Sequence record: OR352958.1
DNA from: Escherichia phage AV128
Reading direction: 5' to 3' (one strand)
DNA length: 64,000 nucleotides
This document shows, one piece after another, positions 1 to 61,900 of the stretch (positions are counted from its first letter, which is position 1; each line of letters begins with the position of its first letter). Position numbers and translations under genes: made by a program. The notes beneath the pieces are model-generated. The model searched no databases. It was not told the DNA's origin and saw nothing but the letters and a program-made list of their open reading frames with translations.

Positions 1-110
1 TGACTTTCCAATTATGTGTTAATATTTTATTCATATTATAGTTTGCTTGAGACAGCTATATCAAGTAAAATTGTGATTCCAGCTTAGTAGTGGATAAAGG
101 GTGATCTTTT

Positions 111-140
111 ATGGCCAGAAATAATCTGGCCATTTTTTTA
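111..140 (+). terminator. Rho-independent terminator
   Basis: Perfect 8-bp stem atggccag/ctggccat, 7-nt loop, followed by T6. Confidence 0.5.
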
Positions 141-159
141 ATTTAAATTCACAAAAAGT

Positions 160-187
160 TTGCCTTTCTGAAATTCTGCATTATAAT
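160..187 (+). promoter_or_regulatory. sigma70-like promoter (TTGCCT-16-TATAAT)
   Basis: -35 and -10 hexamers with 16-bp spacer, about 25 bp upstream of the 214 start. Confidence 0.45.
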
Positions 188-213
188 CATATTAACTCAA
201 AACCGGAGGTAAT

Positions 214-429
214 ATGAAACTCATCGACCGCGCCATCAAATCCATTGATAATCACTCCACAGCGATTGCTTTCGTAATGGGATTTTGTTTCACTGCTGCG
301 TTTGGCGACGTTCAAACATTCAAGTCTGTCATCTTGTGCTGGTCCATCTGGTCACTTATTTCTCTGGTTTTGATTCTTCCGATGACGTGGCTTGTTCTTA
401 CTTGTCTTGAATCTCAAGGTGAAGACTGA
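214..429 (+). CDS. small membrane protein (two hydrophobic segments, acidic C-terminus)
   Basis: GGAGG RBS 4 nt upstream of ATG; hydrophobic stretches in translation. Confidence 0.5.
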   Translation: MKLIDRAIKSIDNHSTAIAFVMGFCFTAAFGDVQTFKSVILCWSIWSLISLVLILPMTWLVLTCLESQGED

Positions 430-650
430 TGAGACTATCAATCAAAGAGCGGGTAAAGCGACCCAAAAGGAGTGAGCCAAAGGCCAAATACACATGCATC
501 GGCGGACCTTTTGACGGTCAAGCGATGTGGCTTTCAAAATCTAATCCATCGACGGTTGAGTTCAGCCTTCATGGAATGCGCGGCAGATACCTGCTAAATA
601 GAGAAACAAGTGGCAGCACATTTGTGGAGTGGAAAGAAAATGGCAAATGA
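429..650 (+). CDS. hypothetical protein
   Basis: ORF start overlaps previous stop (ATGA); same-strand block. Confidence 0.4.
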   Translation: MRLSIKERVKRPKRSEPKAKYTCIGGPFDGQAMWLSKSNPSTVEFSLHGMRGRYLLNRETSGSTFVEWKENGK

Positions 651-873
651 ATTGACTTTAACAGTACCAAAAGAAGTGATAGACAAGGCATGCGCGGATT
701 CAGTGAAAGAATTGGCTGGAGTTCTTGGAATTGAAAATGAATTCAGCGTTCAGGTGCAATTCCTTAAGGATACTCTTCAAATCAAAGAGAACAAAGAAGC
801 TGGCGGCGGTGCGCCTTTAGCTTTGGCAATAATCTATGCGGGATTAATTTTGAAGTCTGGAGGTGAACTGTGA
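640..873 (+). CDS. hypothetical protein (C-terminal hydrophobic segment)
   Basis: Internal ATG at 640 chosen over GTG at 610; start uncertain. Confidence 0.4.
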   Translation: MANELTLTVPKEVIDKACADSVKELAGVLGIENEFSVQVQFLKDTLQIKENKEAGGGAPLALAIIYAGLILKSGGEL

Positions 874-1025
874 ATCGTTGGTGCAGTTGGAAGCTGAAAC
901 GTCTCGCCTGGGCCAATGCCGCCAATTCTGCTGGCTCAATCGCTGCTGGTGTTGGGTCGATATGGGATGGTGAAGGCCGTTGGGCCTCGCTGTGTGGCAC
1001 GCGCCTATTCTTTCGTGTAAAATAA
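870..1025 (+). CDS. possible small Trp-rich protein (GTG start)
   Basis: GGAGG 4 nt upstream of GTG; 51 codons; below ORF-track size cutoff. Confidence 0.2.
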   Translation: MNRWCSWKLKRLAWANAANSAGSIAAGVGSIWDGEGRWASLCGTRLFFRVK

Positions 1026-1068
1026 TATTCACCCTTCCCATATCGGGAAGGGAATTAAAGAGGTTATC

Positions 1069-1410
1069 ATGAACAATACTTTATCACAACTGCTAATCTG
1101 GACAATCGCTGCTATCATTGGCACCGTTATTATGATGTCAAGCGCAAAGGCTGAAACGGATATTTGCGCCAGACTTATTTCTGAGAATGGCGAGATTTAT
1201 TATGGAAACTCAAAAGGTGATTACATATCACCTGAAGTTTGCGCTCAGAAGAAAGCAGAAATGCAAAAGCAATATCATGAAGATCAATCTATATCTCAAG
1301 CCGCTCTGATTGAATTAAGTATATCAGCCATCATCTTTCTAATCGTTTTTATGCTCATTATTAAACCAAATAATGACAGCAACCGTCATATTCCTCTCAA
1401 AAGAAATTAA
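1069..1410 (+). CDS. exported membrane-anchored protein (signal peptide, C-terminal TM helix)
   Basis: N-terminal hydrophobic signal ending AKA-ET, two Cys in mature part, C-terminal TM; AGAGG RBS. Confidence 0.55.
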   Translation: MNNTLSQLLIWTIAAIIGTVIMMSSAKAETDICARLISENGEIYYGNSKGDYISPEVCAQKKAEMQKQYHEDQSISQAALIELSISAIIFLIVFMLIIKPNNDSNRHIPLKRN

Positions 1411-1448
1411 GGTTATAATACGGTTGTCGACAAAACGAGGACCGTAAA

Positions 1449-3446
1449 ATGCCAAGGCTAATATTCAAAAACAACTTTGAGGTCGCGCTGGCTCAACCAA
1501 CGACGACTTCAGACACCACAATCACAATTCGCTCAGGGTCAGGCTTTCCGACCTTGGGCGCAAACGAGCGTGTAGTGGCGACAATCGTCGACGCTGCAAC
1601 AGGCCTCCAATTTGAAATCGTCACAGTAACAGCCGTGGTTGGAAACGTCCTGACCGTGCAGCGTGCACAGGAAGGTACTGCAGCGCGTGCATGGAGCGTC
1701 GGAGATTTTTTATCCATAAGGGTGACGGCTGCCATATTGACAAGCACAGTAAGGAATTTTGGAGAATTACCTTCTGGAATAAACTTAAATGCCCTTACTG
1801 GTTCTTGGTTCGGTCAATACCAGCAGTCTTCTAATTCTGCGGCTTCGCAAGTTCTGAATTATCCTGTAGCCCAATCAGGCAGCCTTGAGGTTATTTGCTC
1901 GGCAAACAACTCTGGTGACCAATCTTGCACGCAAATATACAGCACGAATCCTGACAACAAGCAGTACAAAAGAACTTATAATTCAGAAACAAGCACATGG
2001 TCTACTTGGGCTAAAATATATAACTCTTCCGACGTGATTCCAGTCTCCAATGGAGGGACTGGTGTTTCAGACACAGGATCAATAAGAAGAGCAATACTGG
2101 TTCAAGGTGTAGTTTGTAACGATCAGACGGGGCCGCAGTCGTATAACAGCTATCGTTCACCCAACAGCACCTACACTTTCAAGGTTGACAACTCAGGCCA
2201 GGTGGCCTCAATCAATACGGGTACTGAAGAGGTTGTCCCGTTCGCCGTAAGCGCTGGCGGTACAGGGGCAACTAACGCTTACGACGCTCGCATCTCATTA
2301 GGTGTGGGAAGATTCAGCGAGCAAACCAACGAGACTAAAGTTCTAGCACCCAACTTTAGCACTTACATTTACGTGAACGACACCGACTGGGGATGCTTCA
2401 GCCCTACCGTTGGCGGTCGTATTGCGTTGAGTGTGGCGAGTGGTGGTACAGGGGCAACTAACGCTGCTCAAGCACGTACTAACCTCGGCATTGGTTCCGC
2501 AGCAACATTCAACACTGTACCGTTAGCTAACGGTGGTACAGGGGCAACCTCCGACGCTGCTGCTCGCGTCAACTTGAAGGTGGATAAGCTCGTTCAAAGT
2601 TCAACTGACACTAAACTTTTAGATGGTTCAGGAGAGCATACTTTCTTTATTACAGATGGGGATTGGGGGTATTTCAATAATTCTGACTCTTCTCGAATTG
2701 CTCTACCGGTAATTAGCGGAGGTACGGGAGGGAAAACCCCAGCAGAAGGTTCTGAAAACTTAGGGGCAATGCACTGTTGGTACGGTTCCTCAGTCTACTA
2801 CGGTGGTGGTGATTTACCAACTGGTATTGGATTCTACAGCGGGGACACGTCACCTTTTCCGGGAGGTAATGGGGCACCCTTCATATATGCGGAGATAATG
2901 ACTATTGCTGAAGGTGGTCGTGGAGGTAACTGGTCCCAAATAGGGTTCTCTACTATCACATATGAAGCCCCTCGCTACAGACAAAGGACTGCTGACCCTG
3001 CTTTAATTACTAACTGGAGAGATTTCTTGATTCGTGATCTCAACACTACAGTTGACAGTAACGGTTTCATTAAAATCGCATCCCCTATCGTGAAAATCAA
3101 AGGTGACGGTGGTGCTGAGTACAACGACGAGTCTGAAGGTTGTACAGTGGAACGCATCTCGAAAGGTGTCTACCGGATTTCAGGCTGCCTCGGCTTAAAC
3201 TCTGACGCATCGTGGGGCGGCACTGACGGCGGCTTCGAGATACCACTCGACCGAAACAAGCAACCTCGTATTTGGCTGGACTATAAAGTGAATGAAGATG
3301 GATCAATTGATATTTTCACGTATCACAGAACGCACAGCAACGCACCAGTATTTGCAAGGAATAACCTTGAAGGTTATGCAGACGGAGACCCAATAGACAT
3401 ACCAAAGGATGCATTTATCTCTGTGAGGGTGCAAATGCCAAAGTAA
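1449..3446 (+). CDS. tail fibre protein with phage tail-fibre repeats
   Basis: Four copies of xGGTGATNAxxARxNLG-type motif typical of the phage tail fibre repeat family; 665 aa. Confidence 0.8.
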   Translation: MPRLIFKNNFEVALAQPTTTSDTTITIRSGSGFPTLGANERVVATIVDAATGLQFEIVTVTAVVGNVLTVQRAQEGTAARAWSVGDFLSIRVTAAILTSTVRNFGELPSGINLNALTGSWFGQYQQSSNSAASQVLNYPVAQSGSLEVICSANNSGDQSCTQIYSTNPDNKQYKRTYNSETSTWSTWAKIYNSSDVIPVSNGGTGVSDTGSIRRAILVQGVVCNDQTGPQSYNSYRSPNSTYTFKVDNSGQVASINTGTEEVVPFAVSAGGTGATNAYDARISLGVGRFSEQTNETKVLAPNFSTYIYVNDTDWGCFSPTVGGRIALSVASGGTGATNAAQARTNLGIGSAATFNTVPLANGGTGATSDAAARVNLKVDKLVQSSTDTKLLDGSGEHTFFITDGDWGYFNNSDSSRIALPVISGGTGGKTPAEGSENLGAMHCWYGSSVYYGGGDLPTGIGFYSGDTSPFPGGNGAPFIYAEIMTIAEGGRGGNWSQIGFSTITYEAPRYRQRTADPALITNWRDFLIRDLNTTVDSNGFIKIASPIVKIKGDGGAEYNDESEGCTVERISKGVYRISGCLGLNSDASWGGTDGGFEIPLDRNKQPRIWLDYKVNEDGSIDIFTYHRTHSNAPVFARNNLEGYADGDPIDIPKDAFISVRVQMPK

Positions 3447-3453
3447 TTAAATC

Positions 3454-3480
3454 AAGGCGCTGAAAAGCGCCTTTACTTTA
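3454..3480 (+). terminator. Rho-independent terminator after tail fibre gene
   Basis: Stem aaggcgc/gcgcctt, loop tgaaaa, T-rich tail. Confidence 0.5.
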
Positions 3481-3499
3481 TGCTATATTAAGTTATACT
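3472..3499 (+). promoter_or_regulatory. sigma70-like promoter (TTTACT-16-TATACT)
   Basis: Hexamers and spacing read directly; upstream of 3530 gene. Confidence 0.4.
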
Positions 3500-3529
3500 C
3501 ATTATACGTTAACAAGTGAGGTGGATGAA

Positions 3530-3811
3530 ATGAAATTTGAAGACATCGACAAGGCCCAAAAAGCAAAGGCGCTGCCTAAATATGTCATCTGTGGTATTGA
3601 CCCTGAAGATAACCGCTTGGTTTTCTTAAAGCAAGTTGATAGCAATGAATCTGGCGACGCAGCTAATTGGTGCATCCCTTTGTTTGAGACAGCAGAAGAA
3701 GCCCAGAAGGTATTGTCAGAAAGCAATTTACCTAAACACTACAGTGTCGTTTCACAAGATGACATGGCAAAATTAGTGTTTAATTTTTATGGATATGGGA
3801 GAAGATTCTAA
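3530..3811 (+). CDS. hypothetical protein
   Basis: ATG at 3530 with GAGGTGG RBS; track start 3521 is GTG. Confidence 0.45.
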   Translation: MKFEDIDKAQKAKALPKYVICGIDPEDNRLVFLKQVDSNESGDAANWCIPLFETAEEAQKVLSESNLPKHYSVVSQDDMAKLVFNFYGYGRRF

Positions 3812-4838: not shown

Positions 4839-5219
4839 ATGTCAAATAAGAATGATTCTATTCACAACACATATACTAAAGGCAGCGGAATGGCCTTTGG
4901 TGGAAGCATCAAAATTAACGTGCCATCTTGCGATTATGATGGATTGGAAGTCGGCAACCGCGACTTAACATGGGTTTTACGTCGCCAATCCGATTTAGAA
5001 GAGAAGCTGGAAAATATTGAGCGTTCTCTTGAAAGTCTTCGCGACCAGCTTTTTGGTTGTCCTGAAGATGAGTCAAAACCTGAATCACATGCAGCCAATC
5101 GCGGTTTGATTGATAATATGCTTGCTATTACCGCTCGATCAATTGGTAAAACTGTGTCCATTGAATCATTGATCAGCCAGATTGCGGATGGCTTTGGTGA
5201 TGCCCATAAGAGTGAATAG
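4839..5219 (+). CDS. hypothetical protein (coiled-coil region)
   Basis: ATG at 4839 with AAAGGT RBS; track start 4809 is TTG. Confidence 0.45.
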   Translation: MSNKNDSIHNTYTKGSGMAFGGSIKINVPSCDYDGLEVGNRDLTWVLRRQSDLEEKLENIERSLESLRDQLFGCPEDESKPESHAANRGLIDNMLAITARSIGKTVSIESLISQIADGFGDAHKSE

Positions 5220-5292
5220 TGGGTGTTGCTGATTTAACCGTGAATCGTGGGTCGCTGTGGCGGCCCTTTCTTTTGCCTGCCGCGCAGGAGTG

Positions 5293-5399
5293 TACTGCAA
5301 ATTTACTGTGGGCACAAAATAGTACGGTACTGTCTAGGACTTTTTCTTTGAAAAGTTAGTGGACCAAATGTGTCGTATTTTGATTAGTGTACTGCAAAT
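5293..5399 (+). repeat. two direct copies of GTGTACTGCAAATTT (variant of the ATAGTGCAAAT motif) 96 bp apart
   Basis: Exact 15-mer at 5291 and 5387 in a non-coding stretch. Confidence 0.6.
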
Positions 5400-5489
5400 T
5401 TCATCAAGTACCAAAACGCACCAAAAGACCCATGCCCTAAAAACCACACGAACGCAATAATCAATCGCCGTTACAGTTTCCAGCGTTAC

Positions 5490-5760
5490 AATTAGAAAGC
5501 GAATGATTCGATGCATAATAATATGAAACATAATGATTCGAAAGCGAATGATTGCGTGTAGGATAATATCGGTGGGGATTATTATATATGTCGGTAATTT
5601 CGCATGCGTACTATTTTCGGGCGAAGGGTCGGCATATTCCTCGTTTTAGTTCGGAACGAAGGGAAAGTTTTGCGCCTTTATAAAACAACGACTTACGCGA
5701 CCCGCCTTAACGGTCCGATATAGGTGTCTATATAAAACAAGGACTTGCGCGATGTTCTCC
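5490..5760 (+). repeat. cluster of short direct repeats in non-coding DNA
   Basis: AAAGCGAATGATT twice, TATAAAACAAsGACTTrCGCGA twice, several CGAAGGG copies. Confidence 0.5.
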
Positions 5761-5916
5761 ATTTAACGTAATACCTGTTATGCGAACTAAGGAGCATCTC
5801 GAAGAAGATTATGCGACGACGAAGGGAAGGATAAAGGAGTTTTCGCGTAGGAGCGCACCGAGATAGGGACGAAGAAAAGCCGCGACTAAGCGCGGCCTAT
5901 TAGTAACGGAAGGGTA

Positions 5917-6207
5917 TTATAAGGAGACGATTTTAAAATAAGTCACTTCGCCGCCGAGTTGCGGTACAGCGATATATTCGCCGCCGATTTCGGTAATCGT
6001 ATAGACGAAGCCGTTAATCGTTACGCGGCAGGATACGATGTCCTCGTCGCGATACTTGTAAAGGTCGAGGAAGTTGATCGGCTCATAAATAGACTCGATA
6101 GTTGCGTCGACGTTAGAGAGATAAACGCTCTCTAAGGTTTCGCCAAATACGTTAGAGTTTTCGGAAGTCTCGACGCGAGCGGAACGGATAGCGGCTAAAG
6201 TAATCAT
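5917..6207 (-). CDS. small protein, paralog family member A
   Basis: AGGAG RBS; shares VY..NVD.TIE and NG...EIG motifs with 6493-6795 and 7020-7304 products. Confidence 0.55.
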   Translation of the reverse strand: MITLAAIRSARVETSENSNVFGETLESVYLSNVDATIESIYEPINFLDLYKYRDEDIVSCRVTINGFVYTITEIGGEYIAVPQLGGEVTYFKIVSL

Positions 6208-6274
6208 AATAATCTCCTAGTTGGTCGGGCGGGTAGCGACCTATTCGCTACCTCATCCCCTCTCGATATAAAAC

Positions 6275-6303
6275 ATTATAGTCTTAGTGTACGAAGAAGT
6301 AAA
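6275..6303 (-). promoter_or_regulatory. sigma70-like promoter (TTTACT-17-TATAAT) for paralog A
   Basis: Hexamers on minus strand; flanking sequence conserved with the other two paralog promoters. Confidence 0.5.
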
Positions 6304-6322
6304 GCACTTTTCGTTATTTTTT

Positions 6323-6475
6323 CTATTTATTTAAAGCGCGTCTCCCAAGTTCGACGACCCAAGCGGCGGCATCTTCCGCCTTATTAAATTCGTATAGATG
6401 CTTCTTATCTTCGAAGACGTAAAATAAAATACGTCCGAACTTATTAGCCTTCGCGCTTAACTCGATAGTTTTCAT
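6323..6475 (-). CDS. small hypothetical protein (50 aa)
   Basis: AAGGAG RBS 6 nt upstream; below ORF-track cutoff. Confidence 0.4.
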   Translation of the reverse strand: MKTIELSAKANKFGRILFYVFEDKKHLYEFNKAEDAAAWVVELGRRALNK

Positions 6476-6492
6476 CTTCTACTCCTTTTTCG

Positions 6493-6795
6493 TTATTTTG
6501 CGATAAAATATTTATAAGCCTTATCGCCTTCTACGTCGATATACTCGACGATAATTAACGCTTCGCCGCGCGGCGTAACCGTCTCGATAAGGGTAACGGC
6601 TTCGTCGTCGGTCTTCGCGAAGCGGATGGCACTACGTTCGGCGTACTTAATATCGTCGAAGGAAAGGCCGACGAAAGCGACCGCGCGGACCTTAATGATG
6701 GTGGATTCTAGTTCCGCGTTAACGGCGGCGATAAGAGAACGAACGGTTAAACGGTCTTCGTCGTAAGTAATGATAGAAGAGATTAAAGTGGTCAT
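6493..6795 (-). CDS. small protein, paralog family member B
   Basis: ATG at 6795 with GGGAG RBS; track ORF extends to 6852. Confidence 0.55.
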   Translation of the reverse strand: MTTLISSIITYDEDRLTVRSLIAAVNAELESTIIKVRAVAFVGLSFDDIKYAERSAIRFAKTDDEAVTLIETVTPRGEALIIVEYIDVEGDKAYKYFIAK

Positions 6796-6851
6796 AATAA
6801 AACTCCCGATGCTAGTAGAAGGAAGGGCCATCGCCCGTCTCGATATAAACA

Positions 6852-6879
6852 AGTATACGCGAGTGTACGAAGAAGTAAA
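6852..6879 (-). promoter_or_regulatory. sigma70-like promoter (TTTACT-16-TATACT) for paralog B
   Basis: Near-copy of the 6275-6303 promoter element. Confidence 0.5.
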
Positions 6880-6923
6880 GAAAAAAGATAAAATAATTTA
6901 TCTCATTTTTATCGAAAAAGTGC

Positions 6924-6951
6924 TTTACTTTTTTCTACACTATATTATAAT
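6924..6951 (+). promoter_or_regulatory. sigma70-like promoter (TTTACT-16-TATAAT) for paralog C
   Basis: GTGCTTTACTT...TATAAT conserved with the two minus-strand copies; divergent from 6852-6879. Confidence 0.5.
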
Positions 6952-7019
6952 GTACTCATATCGGGACGGGATGAGTTAACGAATAGGTCGTTAACGCCTC
7001 TCCCAACTAGGAGTTTAAA

Positions 7020-7304
7020 ATGGCTATTCTTAACGTTTCTTCTATTCGTAACGCTATCGTCGAGAACTACGGCGTAAAACAAATTTTATCCGAAGTCTAC
7101 GCCGCGAACGTAGACCAAACTATCGAGGCGGGTGGGGTAACGGTCGCCGAGGCGTTTAAACTTTACGCGGCGTTACCGGAATCGGACCGCGAAGCCTTCG
7201 AAGTAAACGTTAACGGATATTTCTTCGAAGCGGTCGAAATCGGTAATATCTTACTCGTTATGGGCGAAGAAGAATTTGAGACCTTCTCCCTCGTCGAAGC
7301 GTAA
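7020..7304 (+). CDS. small protein, paralog family member C
   Basis: AGGAG RBS; protein motifs shared with paralogs A and B. Confidence 0.55.
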   Translation: MAILNVSSIRNAIVENYGVKQILSEVYAANVDQTIEAGGVTVAEAFKLYAALPESDREAFEVNVNGYFFEAVEIGNILLVMGEEEFETFSLVEA

Positions 7305-7384
7305 GAGAGGATTTTTAGAGCGTCGTGCGCGGCGCTTTAATAAAATTCTTTCGCGCCTAGCGCCCTAACAAATAGGAGTTTATT

Positions 7385-8011
7385 ATGGTTAGCTTAAATC
7401 GCTTTTCTACTAGCGGCGACGTTATCGCAACTAAGACCGCCGACCTCGTTGCATTCTATAATGCAAATTCCGGCTCAAAACCGATTAAGAAGTTTGCGGA
7501 CCGCCGGACCGCCGAGACTCGCGTAATCGCGTTAATCGAGTCCTTAAACGCGCTCGATGAGCCGTCCAACGAGTCGCCCATCCCTGACGCGAAGCCGCGC
7601 GAGGAAGTGTCCAGCGATGTAAAAACGCATAAGGCGCGTGCGGTCGTTAAAAAGGCCGAGCCGACCCAGGAAGAACTCGATGCGATGAGCGATGAAGAGT
7701 ATGAAGCCTTCGTTAAGAGCGGCTTAAACGATAGTGCAAATTGCGTAGTGCAAAATGGAACTCCTTCCCATCGCCGTTCGAATAGCGAAGGTATTGCAAA
7801 AAGTTGGGATAACAAGGAAGTGGCGCAAAAGCGTCTCACCCGTAACGGCGTTATTGTCGAGGGTGTAGGAGAGTTCAAATCGGTCCGCGTAGCGTTTGCT
7901 GCGCTGGGCTTACCAGATAGCAAGCACATTCGCTTCCGCATGAAGCTTAAAGAAGCTGGACGCTTGAACTTCGAGTTCGGCAACAAGTCCTACACCTTCC
8001 AGATCATCTAA
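7385..8011 (+). CDS. hypothetical protein
   Basis: AGGAG RBS; contains two motif copies (7731, 7746) near its 3' end. Confidence 0.5.
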   Translation: MVSLNRFSTSGDVIATKTADLVAFYNANSGSKPIKKFADRRTAETRVIALIESLNALDEPSNESPIPDAKPREEVSSDVKTHKARAVVKKAEPTQEELDAMSDEEYEAFVKSGLNDSANCVVQNGTPSHRRSNSEGIAKSWDNKEVAQKRLTRNGVIVEGVGEFKSVRVAFAALGLPDSKHIRFRMKLKEAGRLNFEFGNKSYTFQII

Positions 8012-8017
8012 TCGAAT

Positions 8018-8041
8018 GGCGGCCCTTCGGGGTCGCTTTTC
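8018..8041 (+). terminator. Rho-independent terminator
   Basis: Stem gcggccc/gggtcgc with ttcg loop and TTTT tail, 7 nt after stop. Confidence 0.5.
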
Positions 8042-8061
8042 ATAGTGCAAATTGGTGGCTT

Positions 8062-8325
8062 ATGAACACGCTTATTCTCATCGCTACGTTGTCCATCGGA
8101 AGTGGTCGCGCCTTATCCCTTTATGACCATAGTGCAAATTGCGCTTACCCAACGCGCGTTGCGGCGATAGTTAATAGTGCAAATCGAATGCTATTTGAGA
8201 CTTGTTGGCGGGTAGATAACGAGAAAGGGCGCATCGTCTTAGGTTATAGTGCAAATCTGCTGGTGGAGTCGTTCGATTGGACGGCGGAAGGTCGTAAATT
8301 GTTACGTAAAGTGACTAAAAGATGA
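8062..8325 (+). CDS. doubtful ORF inside motif array
   Basis: GGTGG RBS and bracketing terminators, but three SAN tripeptides are translations of the DNA motif. Confidence 0.2.
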   Translation: MNTLILIATLSIGSGRALSLYDHSANCAYPTRVAAIVNSANRMLFETCWRVDNEKGRIVLGYSANLLVESFDWTAEGRKLLRKVTKR

Positions 8326-8384
8326 CTTATAATAATACACTTTCTAACGCGTTTATGGTTGTAGCCTTCCCCGTCGTATTACCG

Positions 8385-8426
8385 ATGGCCCTAGAAGTTG
8401 AGAAAATGTGTTCTAGGGCCATTTTA
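8385..8426 (+). terminator. strong Rho-independent terminator
   Basis: Perfect 12-bp stem atggccctagaa/ttctagggccat, 14-nt loop, T-rich tail. Confidence 0.6.
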
Positions 8427-8439
8427 TAGTGCAAATTGG

Positions 8440-8913
8440 CTAGTGGCGGGAGAATTGCTCACCCTCTTTGGCTGCCTCTCCAAAATCCTTGTAGAAATCG
8501 TCCATGGAACGGCCCATTTTACTATTGCCATTTTCATCAATCATCGTGATGCCGTAGATGATATTCAGTTCACGGATAGCATTAAGCTTGGCTGATGCCG
8601 CGACTTCTGGATCACGCACAAGCTTCACTAAATTGTGGATGGAACTCTTTACGCTCCACAATTCCTTCAATGGCATCTCTTCCATACGCTTTTTGTAGCG
8701 CATCTTGTAGTACGGATTGCGCTGCGTGCAGAGGATTCGCTGGCCAGTGTAGTTATCGGTCGCAACCTCCATGCCAAATACTAGTGCAAAAGCTGCGCGC
8801 ATGTCATGGCCCTGAATAACAAGGTCAATGAACTCATCGAATAAAGCCTGATTGTGCTCTGCAAATCGCGGGTCTTCAAAGTCCTCAGGCATCGCTACAT
8901 AATCTTGACTCAT
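8440..8913 (-). CDS. hypothetical protein (about 157 aa)
   Basis: Long ORF downstream of a strong minus-strand promoter; no Shine-Dalgarno; start 8913 or 8928. Confidence 0.45.
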   Translation of the reverse strand: MSQDYVAMPEDFEDPRFAEHNQALFDEFIDLVIQGHDMRAAFALVFGMEVATDNYTGQRILCTQRNPYYKMRYKKRMEEMPLKELWSVKSSIHNLVKLVRDPEVAASAKLNAIRELNIIYGITMIDENGNSKMGRSMDDFYKDFGEAAKEGEQFSRH

Positions 8914-8948
8914 AGTGCAAAATCCCATAGTGCAAATTAATAGTGTGA

Positions 8949-8977
8949 ATTATACAATGATTGAACATTATATTCAA
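8949..8977 (-). promoter_or_regulatory. sigma70-like promoter (TTGAAT-17-TATAAT)
   Basis: Near-consensus hexamers on minus strand about 35 bp upstream of the 8913 start. Confidence 0.5.
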
Positions 8978-9140
8978 GTGCAGATTGATGTTCAAATTGG
9001 CTGTAAACGTACACAAACCATAGTGCTGAATGAATATCGGACCGTGGTGCGTGGTGTACTGTTTGATACGTATAAAAGAAATCCATCCCTTTCGCCGCTT
9101 GTTATGCAAATCAATGACTTAGCCGCTGCTGGATGGTTGA

Positions 9141-9430
9141 AGCGTATCATGAAGTATCATCCGTATTGCCGCAAGTCTTTGTTTTTACTTATATCTTACG
9201 GATGATACGTATAAATATAAGTTTAGTATAAGTATGAGGATGTAGAAAAAAATTAATTTAAATTAATTCAAAATGGAGTTAATTGTTTTTTTTCAAAGTT
9301 GTATAAAGTATAGCGGCGACGCGTATCATCCGTATCATCCGTAAGATGTACCACTGAACCCAGTCGCGGCGCACCATAGAAGTGTGTGGAGTGAACTACG
9401 GATAGGTCCAAATCTTACGTCATTATACGC
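9141..9430 (+). repeat. iteron-flanked AT-rich element A
   Basis: TACGGATGATACG at 9197; AT-rich core 9241-9300; inverted CGTATCATCCGTATCATCCGTA at 9322; homologous to 61620-61900. Confidence 0.65.
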
Positions 9431-9539
9431 TTAAATTCTATGCGTAAGGTTAGCCAGCTAACTATATCTCCTTTTTAATTTCAAGCGGCAATCCCATAGA
9501 CGGCGCAGCCTACAGGCCCACACACCACGGTACACGCTC

Positions 9540-9720
9540 CAATTCCTAGTGATTCCCTCTACAATCCCACAGCACCACAGTACAATATTCTTCCAAATAC
9601 GCACACATATTCAAGACACACAAATCACGTCACAATCCTCGTTTCACACCATCCTCTAATAGATTTACACAAATCAATCGCTTTATCCGATAATAAAGCC
9701 TCACAAACAACAGGCAAACA
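9540..9720 (+). other. G-depleted CA-rich non-coding tract
   Basis: About 14 G in 180 nt on plus strand by hand count; CACA-type runs; no ORF. Confidence 0.6.
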
Positions 9721-9738
9721 AAAAGGGCCAATCGGCCC
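9714..9738 (-). terminator. Rho-independent terminator ending the minus-strand early block
   Basis: Stem agggcc/ggccct with aatc loop; U-run on minus strand. Confidence 0.6.
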
Positions 9739-23872: not shown

Positions 23873-24712
23873 ATGGCCGAAGCAATCAAAGTATTATCTA
23901 AAGAAGAAAAACAAGCAGCCGCAGCAGAACGTCGTCGCGTGGCTGAAGAAAAACGCCTGGCTAAAAAGAAAGAAGCCGAAGAAAAACGCCAGAAGCGTGA
24001 GCAGGAAAAACAAGCCAAGCGTGAAGAAGCCGCGCTGAAGCGCAAACAGGCTGCTGATGAGAAGGCTCAGAAGCGTGCTGAAGAAGCAGCTAAGAAAGCT
24101 AAAGAGCGTGCAGAAAAGGCTGCTGCTAAGAAAGCAGAGCGTGAAGCCGCTAAAGCAGCAAAAGAAATCGAAAAGGCAAAGGCCAAAGAAGAAGCCAAGC
24201 GCCTGAAAGCTGAACAAGCTGCTGCTAAGAAAGCAGAGCGTGATCAAGCCCGTGCTGCAGCAAAGGCCGAAAAAGAGAAGGCTAAAGAAGAAGCGAAAGC
24301 GAAACGCAAGGCAGAGCGTGAAGCTGCTAAGATCGCGGCGAAAGAAGCTGCAGAACAGCAAAAAGAACAGCGTAAGAAAGAAGCTGAAGAACGTCGCAAA
24401 GCCATCGCAGAGCGCAAGGCTGCCAAAAAGGCAAACGGTCAGCGCCGTGCAAAAGCTACTCACTTCATCTACACTGGCAACGGCCTGAGCCAGCCGCAGG
24501 AGCACTCCACCCGTGGGCGCGTTCTGGCGGCGATCAAAGAAGGCGAAGTTGGCGTGGCGCAGTCTATCGATGAGCTGGGCGAGAAAGTTAAAGATCAACT
24601 GTTTGGCGCTTCCGTTCGCTCCTACCTGAGCAAGCTGGAAGAGATGGGCCACATCGAGTTTGTCGATGTTGAATCCAACGACGATGCCGAAGACGGTGAT
24701 CAAGCGGAATAA
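23873..24712 (+). CDS. Lys/Glu/Ala-rich coiled-coil protein with globular C-terminal domain
   Basis: About 200 aa of KEA low-complexity repeats; about 100-bp tandem duplication in DNA; AAGGA RBS; track start 23867 is GTG. Confidence 0.6.
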   Translation: MAEAIKVLSKEEKQAAAAERRRVAEEKRLAKKKEAEEKRQKREQEKQAKREEAALKRKQAADEKAQKRAEEAAKKAKERAEKAAAKKAEREAAKAAKEIEKAKAKEEAKRLKAEQAAAKKAERDQARAAAKAEKEKAKEEAKAKRKAEREAAKIAAKEAAEQQKEQRKKEAEERRKAIAERKAAKKANGQRRAKATHFIYTGNGLSQPQEHSTRGRVLAAIKEGEVGVAQSIDELGEKVKDQLFGASVRSYLSKLEEMGHIEFVDVESNDDAEDGDQAE

Positions 24713-24740
24713 CCTGTAGGACGGTTATATAGCGGTAATT

Positions 24741-24768
24741 GACCCACACTTGTTGTGGGTCTTTTTTC
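24741..24768 (+). terminator. Rho-independent terminator
   Basis: Stem gacccaca/gtgggtc, loop cttgtt, T6 tail. Confidence 0.65.
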
Positions 24769-24793
24769 GTCTGTACTAAATAGAAATGACTTG

Positions 24794-24822
24794 TTGCTGT
24801 AAAATAATTTAGCTATTATACT
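24794..24822 (+). promoter_or_regulatory. sigma70-like promoter (TTGCTG-17-TATACT)
   Basis: Hexamers and spacing read directly upstream of the enzyme cluster. Confidence 0.45.
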
Positions 24823-24846
24823 TCTCATATCACCCACAAAGGACAA

Positions 24847-25842
24847 ATGAACATGAAACAACCTGTAATGATTATCGGCGGCGGTTTGGCAGGACTTATT
24901 ACCGCGTGTCACTTCCCGAACTCTATTGTGTACGAAGCAGGGGAACGAGCGCAACAGCACAAGGCGCTGCTACGCTTTCGCGGCGAAGAAGTAAGCCGTA
25001 TTACCGGAATCCCTTTTAAGGCCGTGACAGTTGACAAGGCTGTGTATTTTCGCGGCAACTACTACCACGACCATTGCCCAATCAACCTTGCCAATATGTA
25101 TTCCATGAAGGTCACCAATCAGTTTGGCAGCCGTTCAATCATGAAGCTTAAAACTGCAACGCGTTATATTGCGCCTGATGACTTTTATGATCAGCTTGTC
25201 GACAAACTGGGTGACCGCATATTCTTTAATACTCCGGTAGATACTCTTTGCGGCTATAGCGAGACGCCAATCATCAACACGTCGCCGCTGCCAGTCATGA
25301 TGAAGCTGGCTGGGATTGATCAAAAGCTTGATTTCTCATTCGATAAAGCAAACATTCGTGTTTACCGCTTTAAGATTAAACGTAAGTGTGATTTGTATCA
25401 GACAATTTACTTCCCTGACTACTCCGTCAGAACTTATCGCGCATCAATTACTGGTGACACGCTTATCATTGAAACAATTCCTTTGGTCAGCGTGAGTGAA
25501 GCTGCAGTTGAAGCCGCTGGCGGCATCACTCGTTACCGTGACATGAAGCTGCGCGCAGAAGTCGACGAAGTGTTGACAGCCTTTGGCCTCTCATGGAGTG
25601 ACATTGCTCTTGAAGAAGTTGAAAAGGTCGACCAGAAATATGGCAAGATTGTCGACATTCCGAAAGACTTGCGACACGCCCTACTCCTGCAGCTGACTAT
25701 GGATTTGAACGTGTTCAGTGTCGGTCGATTTGCTACCTGGCGCAACATTTTGCTTGATGACGTTGCCCATGACCTTGTTGAAGTTGAAAAACTCATCAAA
25801 GCAAATAACTATCAAAAATTTGCTTATATTGCTAATAAATAA
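24847..25842 (+). CDS. FAD/NAD(P)-binding oxidoreductase
   Basis: N-terminal Rossmann dinucleotide motif MIIGGGLAGL; 331 aa; start 24847 or 24853. Confidence 0.6.
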   Translation: MNMKQPVMIIGGGLAGLITACHFPNSIVYEAGERAQQHKALLRFRGEEVSRITGIPFKAVTVDKAVYFRGNYYHDHCPINLANMYSMKVTNQFGSRSIMKLKTATRYIAPDDFYDQLVDKLGDRIFFNTPVDTLCGYSETPIINTSPLPVMMKLAGIDQKLDFSFDKANIRVYRFKIKRKCDLYQTIYFPDYSVRTYRASITGDTLIIETIPLVSVSEAAVEAAGGITRYRDMKLRAEVDEVLTAFGLSWSDIALEEVEKVDQKYGKIVDIPKDLRHALLLQLTMDLNVFSVGRFATWRNILLDDVAHDLVEVEKLIKANNYQKFAYIANK

Positions 25843-61516: not shown

Positions 61517-61619
61517 CCACCCTCAAATAAGTATTGTGTATTATATCTAATGAAAAAAACTTAGGCAAACAATAATTATGGTTTGAATATGTATAACAAC
61601 CGATATAGCCGCGCCTTAA

Positions 61620-61900
61620 TTAGTGTGATACGGATGATACGGATAAAATGAGGCGTATTTTTATCCGTATCGGTGTATAAGCCGCGCTATCACTGGTGTG
61701 CTACGGATGATACGGATGATACGGATACTTTTCATATATAAGAGTTTATAAAAAAAATAAAATTAAATTAGATATATAATTTTAAATTAATTTATTTGAA
61801 TTCCTATAAAGTATCGCGGCAACGCGTATCATCCGTATCATCCGTAAGATTCTTTTGAAAACAACTACTTACTTGATACGGATGATACGTCATTATACGC
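61620..61900 (+). repeat. iteron-flanked AT-rich element B (paralog of element A)
   Basis: GATACGGAT tandem units at 61627 and 61702, AT-rich core 61741-61800, inverted CGTATCATCCGTATCATCCGTA at 61825, GATACGGATGATACG at 61875. Confidence 0.65.

Follow-up and report, generated by a model that had tools for sequence, protein, structure and literature searches.

The CA:TG dinucleotide step is nearly excluded from a 2-kb gene cassette in the terminal repeat of Escherichia phage AV128 and related myoviruses

Introduction

Why does a 2-kb block of small genes in Escherichia phage AV128 differ so sharply in composition from the DNA around it? The block lies in a 64,000-nt stretch of this genome (sequence record OR352958.1), which was analysed as a whole and is referred to herein as the window. 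An initial annotation, made from the letters of the DNA alone, had marked positions 5230-8011 as a CpG-rich island with three paralogous small genes, each behind a copy of the same promoter. It had proposed a horizontally acquired or rapidly diversifying early cassette, of the kind in which host-takeover or anti-defence genes are placed. The anomalous zone is real, but it spans about 5600-7600 instead, and its location in the direct terminal repeat (DTR) of the genome had gone unseen.

The source genome is a Wifcevirus, a virulent myovirus of about 68 kb that infects E. coli and Shigella and is distantly related to Pbunavirus. The cassette region matches 28 phage records at 93-97% identity, including WFH, WFC, ECML-117, Mansfield, and Bas98-101. 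The small genes of the cassette are named gp005, gp006, and gp007, with the gene gp004 beside them.

Loss of CA/TG is the primary compositional signal

The zone at 5600-7600 was defined by dinucleotide counts, and the same zone was found in all relatives examined. It contains 76 CA plus TG dinucleotides, versus about 290 expected at the rate of the remaining window. When the composition check suggested with the initial annotation was run, the zone differed clearly from the remaining genome, with CA/TG at 0.26-fold and CpG at about 1.9-fold. CA/TG is the only depleted dinucleotide. CG and TA are raised 1.91-fold and 1.86-fold, and all other dinucleotides stay within 0.90-1.12-fold of the remaining window. 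The rise of CG and TA is the compensation for the loss of CA/TG. The CpG enrichment that had first drawn attention to the island is thus confirmed (observed/expected 2.1-2.3 in 5501-7500 versus 1.12 for the whole window), but it is a secondary signal; the primary one is the loss of CA/TG and not the gain of CpG.

All eight trinucleotide classes that contain CA/TG are depleted, with CAG/CTG the lowest at 0.06-fold and ATG/CAT the highest at 0.48-fold. TAA/TTA and CTA/TAG are enriched 2.2-2.3-fold in the zone. Among the pyrimidine-purine steps, the CA/TG share is 0.08-0.22 in the zone versus a median of 0.59 outside. The search for longer motifs found no k-mer enriched beyond the dinucleotide effect. 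A comparison set of 732 kb, composed of the remaining genome, T5, T7, PB1, MTx, and 55 random IMG/VR loci, was scanned in 600-bp windows. No similar signature was found in this set, and the lowest CA/TG observed/expected value was 0.64.

Vertebrate CpG islands show the same statistics, with more CpG and less TpG/CpA than the DNA around them. The vertebrate pattern, however, results from absent methyl-C deamination, whereas in the phage zone TpA is also up, the use of amino acids is reshaped, and the selection is against CA/TG.

The constraint acts on double-stranded DNA

On the sense strand of the cassette genes, CA and TG are equally scarce, each at about 0.23 of the level in reference genes. 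The depletion is seen at codon positions 1-2, 2-3, and 3-1, and at the 3-1 junction C|G occurs at 27% in cassette genes versus 10% in reference genes. The leucine codons CTG and TTG are never used in the cassette, and the valine codon GTG is used once. The effect reaches the proteins, in which His, Gln, Cys, Trp, and Met are under-used 2-7-fold. The non-coding DNA at 5600-5916 is likewise depleted. At the other side the depletion fades within gp004, and no depletion is seen in the 130-180 bp directly at the terminus.

Since CA equals TG on the sense strand, all codon positions are affected, and non-coding DNA is included, codon preference, tRNA supply, and causes at the level of single-stranded RNA are ruled out. 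The constraint acts on the double-stranded DNA sequence, as it is strand-symmetric and independent of the reading frame. An RNase motif or a pausing signal was considered as an RNA-level cause and rejected, because CA and TG are equally depleted on the sense strand. The corresponding tract of Serratia phage MTx, described below, contains 33 CA and 26 TG. Phage tRNAs were rejected as a cause through codon usage; there are no tRNA genes, and the rare codons ATA and CGA are also avoided.

The same measurements bear on the idea that the cassette is kept clean for expression. With no NTG on either strand, there would be no stray starts (ATG, GTG, TTG, CTG) and no TGA, and TAA/TAG would close the other frames. 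The enrichment of TAA/TTA and CTA/TAG agrees with this, and in two genes of the metagenomic contig L080 the only TG is that of the start ATG. Non-coding DNA is depleted as strongly, however, and CA on the sense strand is as depleted as TG. The loss of five amino acids would also be a very high price for a benefit without known strong selection elsewhere. Clean expression is thus a highly improbable cause of the exclusion.

Two other places in the window were noted for their composition. A tract of about 240 bp at 9480-9730, just outside the repeat, is strongly strand-asymmetric, CA-rich, and G-poor, with 16 CA and 0-1 TG per 100 bp, the opposite of the island. The segment 24001-24500 is a local composition outlier, with a GpC observed/expected of 2.25 and an AT skew of 0.32 in 24001-25000.

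The cassette lies in the direct terminal repeat

The DTR was located at 5424-9274 by BLAST mapping onto the repeats of Mansfield and WFH. Position 5424 is the inner boundary, the equivalent of the right physical genome end, and position 9274 is the left physical end. In Mansfield, the DTR defined by PhageTerm occupies record positions 1-3673; in WFH, 3701 bp are duplicated at both record ends; and a repeat of about 3.7 kb was reported by Korf et al. Together with the mapping onto the window, the estimates of the repeat length range from 3.7 to 3.85 kb.

From the left physical end, the DTR carries GATACGGAT repeats, terS (8440-8928, minus strand), gp003 (8062-8325, plus strand), and gp004, followed by gp005, divergent promoters, gp006, a small gene termed orf50, gp007, and about 490 bp of non-coding DNA. 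The cassette is wholly within the half of the DTR that adjoins the inner boundary. Because it lies in the terminal repeat, it is present at both genome ends. These data support the description of the region as an early-type gene cassette in a terminal repeat, which is a known kind of element.

The same zone is found in other phage lineages

A 50-bp match to P5, the promoter of gp005, pointed to Pantoea phage PA1 (Kylevirus), with 86% identity over the 50 bp. PA1 has a syntenic cassette with a CA/TG observed/expected of 0.22-0.53 and CpG of up to 2.35. It also has the same promoter (CTTTACTTCTTTATACACT...TATAAT), a gp004 homolog, the TAGTGCAAA array described below, and terS. A milder island is present in Pantoea phage Kyle. 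A promoter search of IMG/VR found the promoter in Wifcevirus contigs only; the other 55 loci were chance matches and were reused as the composition control mentioned above.

When 1.84 billion proteins were searched with a profile, one more member of the family, P0140, was found on the contig L080. Orthologs of gp007 (35% identity, E 4e-17) and of gp006 (27% identity, E 1e-5) are encoded on this contig. The exclusion is most extreme here, with 17 CA/TG versus 167 expected in 1390 bp. In L080 5927-7053, the sole CA/TG are those of three start ATGs and of a single TGCA within a promoter-like spacer, and two whole genes have no CA/TG except in the start ATG.

In the Serratia phages MTx and MyoSmar (Myosmarvirus), the DTRs were mapped by PhageTerm to 3566 and 3559 bp. 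A nearly CA/TG-free tract, with an observed/expected of 0.15-0.3, extends over about 2.2 kb in MTx and 1.7 kb in MyoSmar. The tract occupies the equivalent half of the repeat in both, with the record orientation mirrored in MyoSmar; in MTx the zone is at 1401-3601 and the DTR at 1-3566. The MTx island proteins are unrelated to gp005, gp006, and gp007. No similar depletion was found in the whole genome of PB1, in the first-step-transfer region of T5, or in T7, and the trait is therefore lineage-specific. As judged from these sequences, the rule belongs to about 2 kb beside one genome terminus in one lineage of DTR-containing myoviruses, and not to a gene family. Across these phages, the encoded proteins are largely devoid of His, Gln, Cys, Trp, and internal Met.

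A link of the island to the TAGTGCAAA arrays or to gp004 was also considered and rejected, since the MTx and MyoSmar islands lie in terminal repeats, away from the gp004 homolog. Other metagenomic gp004 loci cover the gp004 neighbourhood only and are uninformative on the presence of the island.

The position at a terminus leads to one alternative, namely that a CA/TG-free tract serves the processing of the phage ends, such as duplication of the repeat, termination of packaging, or RecBCD/RecA pairing of the repeat copies. The zone adjoins the inner boundary of the DTR in Wifcevirus (boundary at 5424, depletion from 5600) and in MTx, and a mirrored arrangement is seen in MyoSmar. The zone depends on neither gene content nor gene orientation, and the other half of the DTR carries one-directional Chi clusters or TAGTGCAAA arrays. 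The absence of the trait from PB1, T5, and T7 is also compatible with such a role. On the other side, no known property of a terminase, a recombinase, or RecBCD depends on a single dinucleotide step. The zone lengthens in SP13 with extra inserted genes, so it is not a fixed physical length, and the terminus itself is spared over 130-180 bp. End processing is thus considered an unlikely explanation.

The rule is maintained while the genes diversify

The same island was present in 10 of the 10 relatives examined and in all 28 Wifcevirus records. Its genes have diverged within this group. The alleles of gp007 are down to 71% nucleotide identity, and 85 of the 291 sites differ between two alleles. 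The 291-bp gene still contains only 5-7 CA/TG in the WFH/Bas98 allele and 11 in the allele of the window. When 85 substitutions were placed at random sites in gp007, 27.3 +/- 4.1 CA/TG were expected, versus 5 in the WFH allele. None of the 2000 simulations was as low as the observed value, and none fell below 15.

The spectrum of the changes is also altered. Of the variant sites, 48-54% are transitions in gp007, in the non-coding stretch next to it, and in the promoter regions, and 64% are transitions in gp006, versus 65-70% in the neighbouring DNA. A transition at CG or TA always creates CA/TG, which connects the exclusion with the low share of transitions in the island. These sequence comparisons indicate that the composition rule is actively maintained and is not decaying.

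The gp007 gene has a mosaic structure. Its alleles agree completely in the first 23 residues (first 60 nt) and in the final 8 (last 30 nt), and the middle holds the 85 nucleotide differences, among which transversions outnumber transitions; the central and C-terminal part is hypervariable. Three allele classes were found, at 100%, 77%, and 65% amino-acid identity, in genomes otherwise about 95% identical. This mosaic pattern suggests diversifying selection or cassette exchange. Across isolates the gp005 slot holds the 94-aa protein, a 104-aa variant, or nothing, and orf50 and a 69-aa gene are present in some isolates and absent from others. The description of the island as rapidly diversifying is thus supported by the gp007 alleles at 65-77% amino-acid identity, the variable gp005 slot, and the genes that come and go. 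The 69-aa gene occurs near gp007 only in ECML-117 (L009:3193-3402), FEC19, and SP13 (L004:7677-7886). It is annotated as a 'transcriptional regulator', lies between gp007 and the terminus, and is Met-rich. Its CA/TG observed/expected is 0.5-0.6, that is, half-depleted, and the gene may have arrived recently, with the local rule still reshaping it.

These results also decide on horizontal acquisition with retention of the composition of a donor, which the initial annotation had offered beside diversification. Such an origin could account for the atypical composition and for genes that lack relatives and vary between isolates. No donor was found, and no homolog of gp005, gp006, or gp007 outside this phage group was found in 50,697 phage records, 5.8 billion clustered proteins, and 1.84 billion representatives. 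Nothing near the signature occurs in the 732 kb of comparison DNA. The comparison with related phages gave no patchy presence; the island is in 28 of 28 isolates and occupies the same position in three other lineages. The signature is moreover kept across 29% divergence instead of decaying. Acquisition from a foreign donor is therefore effectively refuted.

Genes and proteins of the cassette

The gp007 gene (5917-6207, minus strand) encodes a protein of 96 aa with a net charge of -8, and gp005 (7020-7304, plus strand) encodes a paralog of 94 aa with a net charge of -12. The gp006 gene (6493-6795, minus strand) encodes 100 aa with a net charge of -5 and is without His, Gln, Cys, Trp, and internal Met. 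The coordinates and strands assigned to these three genes by the initial annotation are correct. A fourth small gene was missing from that account, namely orf50 (6323-6475, minus strand), which encodes 50 aa, has a good Shine-Dalgarno sequence, and occurs only in some isolates. Beside gp005 follows gp004 (7385-8011, plus strand), which encodes a 208-aa member of PHROG 4730 that is conserved across genera.

The three proteins had been taken as paralogs, and this is true for two of them. The gp005 and gp007 proteins share 30% identity (pairwise E 7e-6), and one profile recovers both. No similarity of gp006 to either was found by BLASTP or by profile-profile hhalign (probability 0.3%). The product of orf50 is unrelated to gp005/gp007 and to gp006. 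The ortholog of gp006 in L080 is a 125-aa protein.

The cassette proteins gave nothing above threshold in scans against Pfam, PHROG, and NCBIfam, and the profile searches of the presumed paralogs matched no known structural or housekeeping family. A hidden Markov model (HMM) search of the 1.84 billion proteins returned the family's own members and otherwise only weak matches to Big_13 repeat proteins. Kinship with the Big_13 Ig-like domain was rejected, since the weak profile matches to these giant repeat proteins look like a shared beta-strand pattern. The AlphaFold2 model of the gp005/gp007 family, with a mean pLDDT of 55, too low for a fold search, has an alpha-helical N-terminal half and a beta-meander C-terminal half. 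For gp004, a kinship with NusA was rejected because the PDB sequence search gave NusA matches at chance level only. An Rfam scan of 5000-9500 found nothing.

Net charges across the lineages range from -8 to -19 per about 100 aa. By analogy, small and strongly acidic proteins of this kind are typical of DNA-mimic inhibitors. The cassette proteins share this trait with Ocr and ArdA (gp005 -12, gp007 -8, gp006 -5, and down to -19 in relatives), while no Pfam match to Ocr or ArdA at threshold and no sequence or HMM relation to them was found.

Promoters, leaders, and terminator

Three nearly identical promoter-leader units are present, as the initial annotation had described. The P7 unit (6208-6303, minus strand) has TTTACT-17-TATAAT at 6303-6275, an 8-bp hairpin, and AACTAGGAG. 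The P6 unit (6796-6879, minus strand) has TTTACT-16-TATACT at 6879-6852, and the P5 unit (6924-7019, plus strand) has TTTACT-16-TATAAT at 6924-6951. The elements CTTTACTTCTTCGTACACT, ATATCGrGAsGGG, and AACTAGGAG are common to all three. By computation, the three promoters match 9-10 of the 12 positions of the sigma-70 consensus. Among isolates the promoters are more conserved than the genes, and the PA1 and L080 promoters have the same spacer, CGTACACT.

As predicted from the layout, P6 would transcribe gp006 and orf50; P7 would transcribe gp007 and end at an intrinsic terminator (5877-5898, minus strand), which lies downstream of gp007 and has annotated counterparts at this place in Mansfield and WFH; and P5 would transcribe gp005, gp004, and gp003. 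Phages without gp005 retain P5, which there would serve gp004.

The 8-bp leader hairpins at 6208-6268 (minus strand) and 6958-7019 (plus strand) have an identical 5-nt loop and two compensatory base-pair changes, with free energies of -19.7 kcal/mol for gp007 and -17.1 kcal/mol for gp005. Just upstream of the hairpin, a conserved ATG is followed by one codon and a stop (ATG AGG TAG, ATG AGT TAA). These short ATG reading frames stand in DNA that otherwise avoids TG, and what little CA/TG is conserved belongs to the promoters (GTGC, TACAC).

Restriction phenotypes and sites in the repeat

The BASEL study reported that these phages are resistant to EcoKI, EcoCFT_I, EcoRI, EcoRV, and EcoCFT_II and are very sensitive to EcoP1_I. 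No protection mechanism was known for them, and site numbers were similar for both type III systems. The EcoCFT_II site was inferred as CACAG from the published site numbers (93 in Bas98 and 92 in Bas99), which no other 5-mer matches. Our counts of AGACC, EcoRI, and EcoRV sites reproduce the published numbers exactly.

Sites in the DTR were counted in Bas98, Bas99, and the window. For EcoCFT_II (putative site CACAG), 0-1 sites were found versus about 5 expected (P 0.004-0.04), and these phages are resistant. For EcoP1_I (AGACC), to which the phages show high sensitivity, 5-7 sites in both orientations were found. The other resisted systems have no DTR sites, namely EcoRI (GAATTC), EcoRV (GATATC), EcoCFT_I (EcoAI-type, GAG N7 GTCA), and EcoKI (AAC N6 GTGC), save one EcoKI site in Bas99. 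Genome-wide, CACAG has 92-94 copies. A type III strand bias was rejected as a cause of the EcoCFT_II resistance, as the CACAG sites are distributed 52 versus 41 per strand.

EcoP1_I alone restricts these phages and alone is able to cut the repeat, and this fits first-exposed DNA with an early protective function. In the DTR, the local avoidance of sites thus matches the phenotype, with CACAG scarce and AGACC present. In Autographiviridae, a motif in the first-injected region was reported to decide restriction sensitivity (2025; PMC12455610). The placement of anti-defence genes in the island, as first suggested from the letters, would fit the published restriction phenotypes.

The island contains 288 distinct known restriction sites versus 351 +/- 12 in controls, below any 2-kb control window. 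For enterobacterial-named enzymes the numbers are 17 in the island versus 31 +/- 3 in controls. The depletion is not targeted at particular restriction sites, as CA/TG is lost in every context.

The restriction phenotypes also bear on a novel base modification at CA or TG. The cassette would avoid the target of the modification, so that an unmodified host RNA polymerase could transcribe the incoming DNA at once. A strand-symmetric loss at the dinucleotide level is what a context-specific DNA-modifying enzyme would produce, and the location of the few conserved CA/TG in the promoters is consistent with this. The sites of EcoRI and EcoRV are without CA/TG, yet both systems are resisted; neither the annotated nor the scanned proteins included a modification enzyme; and the sensitivity to EcoP1 speaks against a global protection. 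A base modification is accordingly rated very unlikely.

Favoured explanation

The explanation favoured here, to which we give an even chance, is an immediate-early (pre-early type) cassette in which the exclusion of CA/TG lets the only unprotected phage DNA escape an activity that recognises double-stranded DNA. Host RNA polymerase would fire the three duplicated sigma-70 promoter-leader units once the DNA is in the cell, with P6 and P7 reading toward the terminus and P5 inward through gp005, gp004, and gp003. The small acidic proteins would most likely neutralise restriction or other host functions before the remaining genome is exposed. A constraint attached to the position in the repeat removes the CA:TG step from the whole 2-kb cassette. 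Candidate agents would be restriction-type nucleases with CA/TG in their sites, such as type III enzymes reading CACAG, CAGCAG, or CAGAG.

CAGCAG and CAGAG are enterobacterial type III sites that contain CA/TG. As a separate observation, CAGCAG, the EcoP15I site, has 69 copies in 64 kb, about twice the approximately 31 expected for a random 6-mer, with 2 copies in the terminal repeat and none in the island.

Several points weigh against this explanation. CA/TG occurs in 0.30-0.37 of known restriction sites versus 0.39-0.46 for AG/CT, GA/TC, and CC/GG, and the replacements CG and TA create many other palindromic sites. CA/TG is thus not the commonest step in sites and its removal makes new palindromes, so a generic avoidance of sites fails to single out CA/TG or to account for a nearly absolute removal. 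The restriction correlation comes from two informative systems; for the four low-count systems, the absence of DTR sites is expected by chance (P 0.4-0.9), and Bas99 resists EcoKI despite one DTR site. New variants in close isolates create CA/TG 83 times versus about 102 expected neutrally. This number is only slightly below expectation, and the selection per site is therefore weak but persistent. Only about half of the DTR is depleted. The fold model of the cassette protein reaches a pLDDT of only 55, with no fold assigned, and both the early timing and the first-entering end are inferred.

A broader statement is put forward more tentatively, at somewhat below even confidence. Wifcevirus, Kylevirus, Myosmarvirus, and uncultured relatives would keep about 2 kb beside one terminus essentially free of CA:TG, at the cost of a 15-letter amino-acid alphabet, and the agent would be a host or phage activity that recognises or acts upon this step in double-stranded DNA. 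If true, the exclusion of CA:TG would be a new sequence-level rule in phage genomes and would give direct access to the activity that causes it. Selection maintains the rule, which follows a position in the genome and is common to phages of E. coli, Pantoea, and Serratia; something important therefore acts on this DNA. An early cassette in a terminal repeat is familiar, but a coding region that excludes one dinucleotide was not found described in the searched literature; searches for a phage early region depleted in CA/TG or rich in CpG gave no relevant result. The early-cassette explanation also offers a testable answer to the puzzle left by the BASEL study, in which five restriction systems are resisted without known protection and EcoP1 kills. 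New anti-restriction or host-takeover factors may be found among the small acidic proteins.

Comparison with known early regions

The pre-early region of T5, in a 10-kb terminal repeat, is similar in having early genes in a long direct terminal repeat with strong host-type promoters in both directions. A repeat-rich non-coding stretch also lies at the inner repeat edge, where T5 has an annotated injection stop signal; the repeat arrays at this edge are, as sequence features, suggestive only of such a stop. The two regions differ in that no homologs of A1, A2, or dmp were found here by the Pfam, PHROG, and NCBIfam scans, the repeat here is a third as long, and T5 has no CA/TG depletion (lowest observed/expected 0.70). 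Two-step transfer is a feature of T5.

The likeness to T5 leads to the alternative of self-immunity. An early phage nuclease or DNA-binding shut-off factor would attack CA/TG, the phage's own cassette would be without the target, and the remaining genome would arrive later or protected, as in the two-step transfer of T5. The cassette lies in the terminal repeat like the first-step-transfer DNA of T5, and repeat arrays flank the zone as at the T5 injection stop signal. The nearly absolute depletion in L080 and the very short latent periods reported for these phages would also agree. However, the acidic proteins of about 95 aa have no nuclease motif, the first-step-transfer DNA of T5 is not depleted, and the middle and late genes, with normal CA/TG, must survive too. 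Self-immunity is accordingly given a slim chance.

For the early-cassette explanation, further likeness is found in the class I early region of T7 with Ocr, in which the first genes at the genome end have host promoters and encode a small, very acidic protein, anti-restriction in T7. In the leading region of Autographiviridae (PMC12455610), a motif in first-exposed DNA decides the sensitivity, which fits the CACAG/AGACC pattern. The T7 leading region differs in its normal dinucleotide content; here a whole dinucleotide is excluded and not particular sites.

The host-takeover module of SPO1 is also similar, with many small genes, each with a strong early promoter, in the terminal redundancy. 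SPO1 belongs to another phage family and has another host than Wifcevirus. We know of no genes in common between SPO1 and the cassette and of no report of dinucleotide exclusion in SPO1. The leading regions of conjugative plasmids place anti-defence genes in the first-entering DNA and express them at once, as proposed for the cassette. They differ by entering as a single strand and by their single-strand promoters, and to our knowledge no compositional exclusion occurs in them.

Repeats and Chi sites in the terminal repeat

The stretch of non-coding DNA containing short direct repeats that had been described before the genes was confirmed at 5220-5916, where no convincing open reading frame and four direct-repeat families were found. 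Two exact copies of AGTGTACTGCAAATTT (5289-5304 and 5386-5401, plus strand), variants of the TAGTGCAAA motif, lie just outside the DTR boundary. Three copies of GAAAGCGAATGATT repeats (5491-5569) are at the inner DTR edge, and two copies of a 25-nt direct repeat, CTwTATAAAACAAsGACTTrCGCGA (5676-5752, plus strand), are in the non-coding part of the zone. At the inner repeat edge, that is, the right terminus, AAYCATT(CG)/GAATGATT arrays occur in three lineages, at 5491-5569 in the window, L079:6540-6830 in PA1, and L080:7200-7450.

In the other DTR half, composition is normal and one-directional signals are present. The TAGTGCAAA array (7732-8936, plus strand) consists of 10 exact copies and overlaps gp004, gp003, and terS. 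Four one-mismatch variants are at 5293, 5390, 7459, and 7792 on the same strand. All copies lie within the DTR except two TACTGCAAA variants (5293 and 5390), which lie just beyond the inner boundary. Within gp004 (two frames) and gp003 the copies are read in different frames, and in terS they are antisense. Their presence in several frames and in antisense indicates a directional signal at the DNA level. The array is kept in PA1 (L079:9080-9270) and L080 (4169-5123), and 7-10 one-directional copies occur in Wifcevirus, PA1, and L080, some beside Chi. The array could be a recognition array for the terminase small subunit or a Chi-like end signal.

The TAGTGCAAA array includes one Chi site (GCTGGTGG), at 8259, which immediately follows a TAGTGCAAA copy and is on the strand of the array. 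In both MTx and MyoSmar, the DTR half without depletion carries four Chi, all in a single orientation, at 179, 930, 997, and 1276 in MTx (L111) and at 2107, 2164, 2338, and 2447 in MyoSmar (L114); in MTx only 1 Chi occurs in the next 46 kb. From the known polarity of Chi, this orientation would stop RecBCD that enters from the adjacent terminus.

GATACGGATGATACGG-type repeats, inverted around an AT-rich core, were observed at 9140-9345 and 61600-61890. One set is exactly at the left terminus (about 9274), and the second, very similar structure is about 52 kb away. These structures may be terminase cleavage, origin, or regulatory sites.

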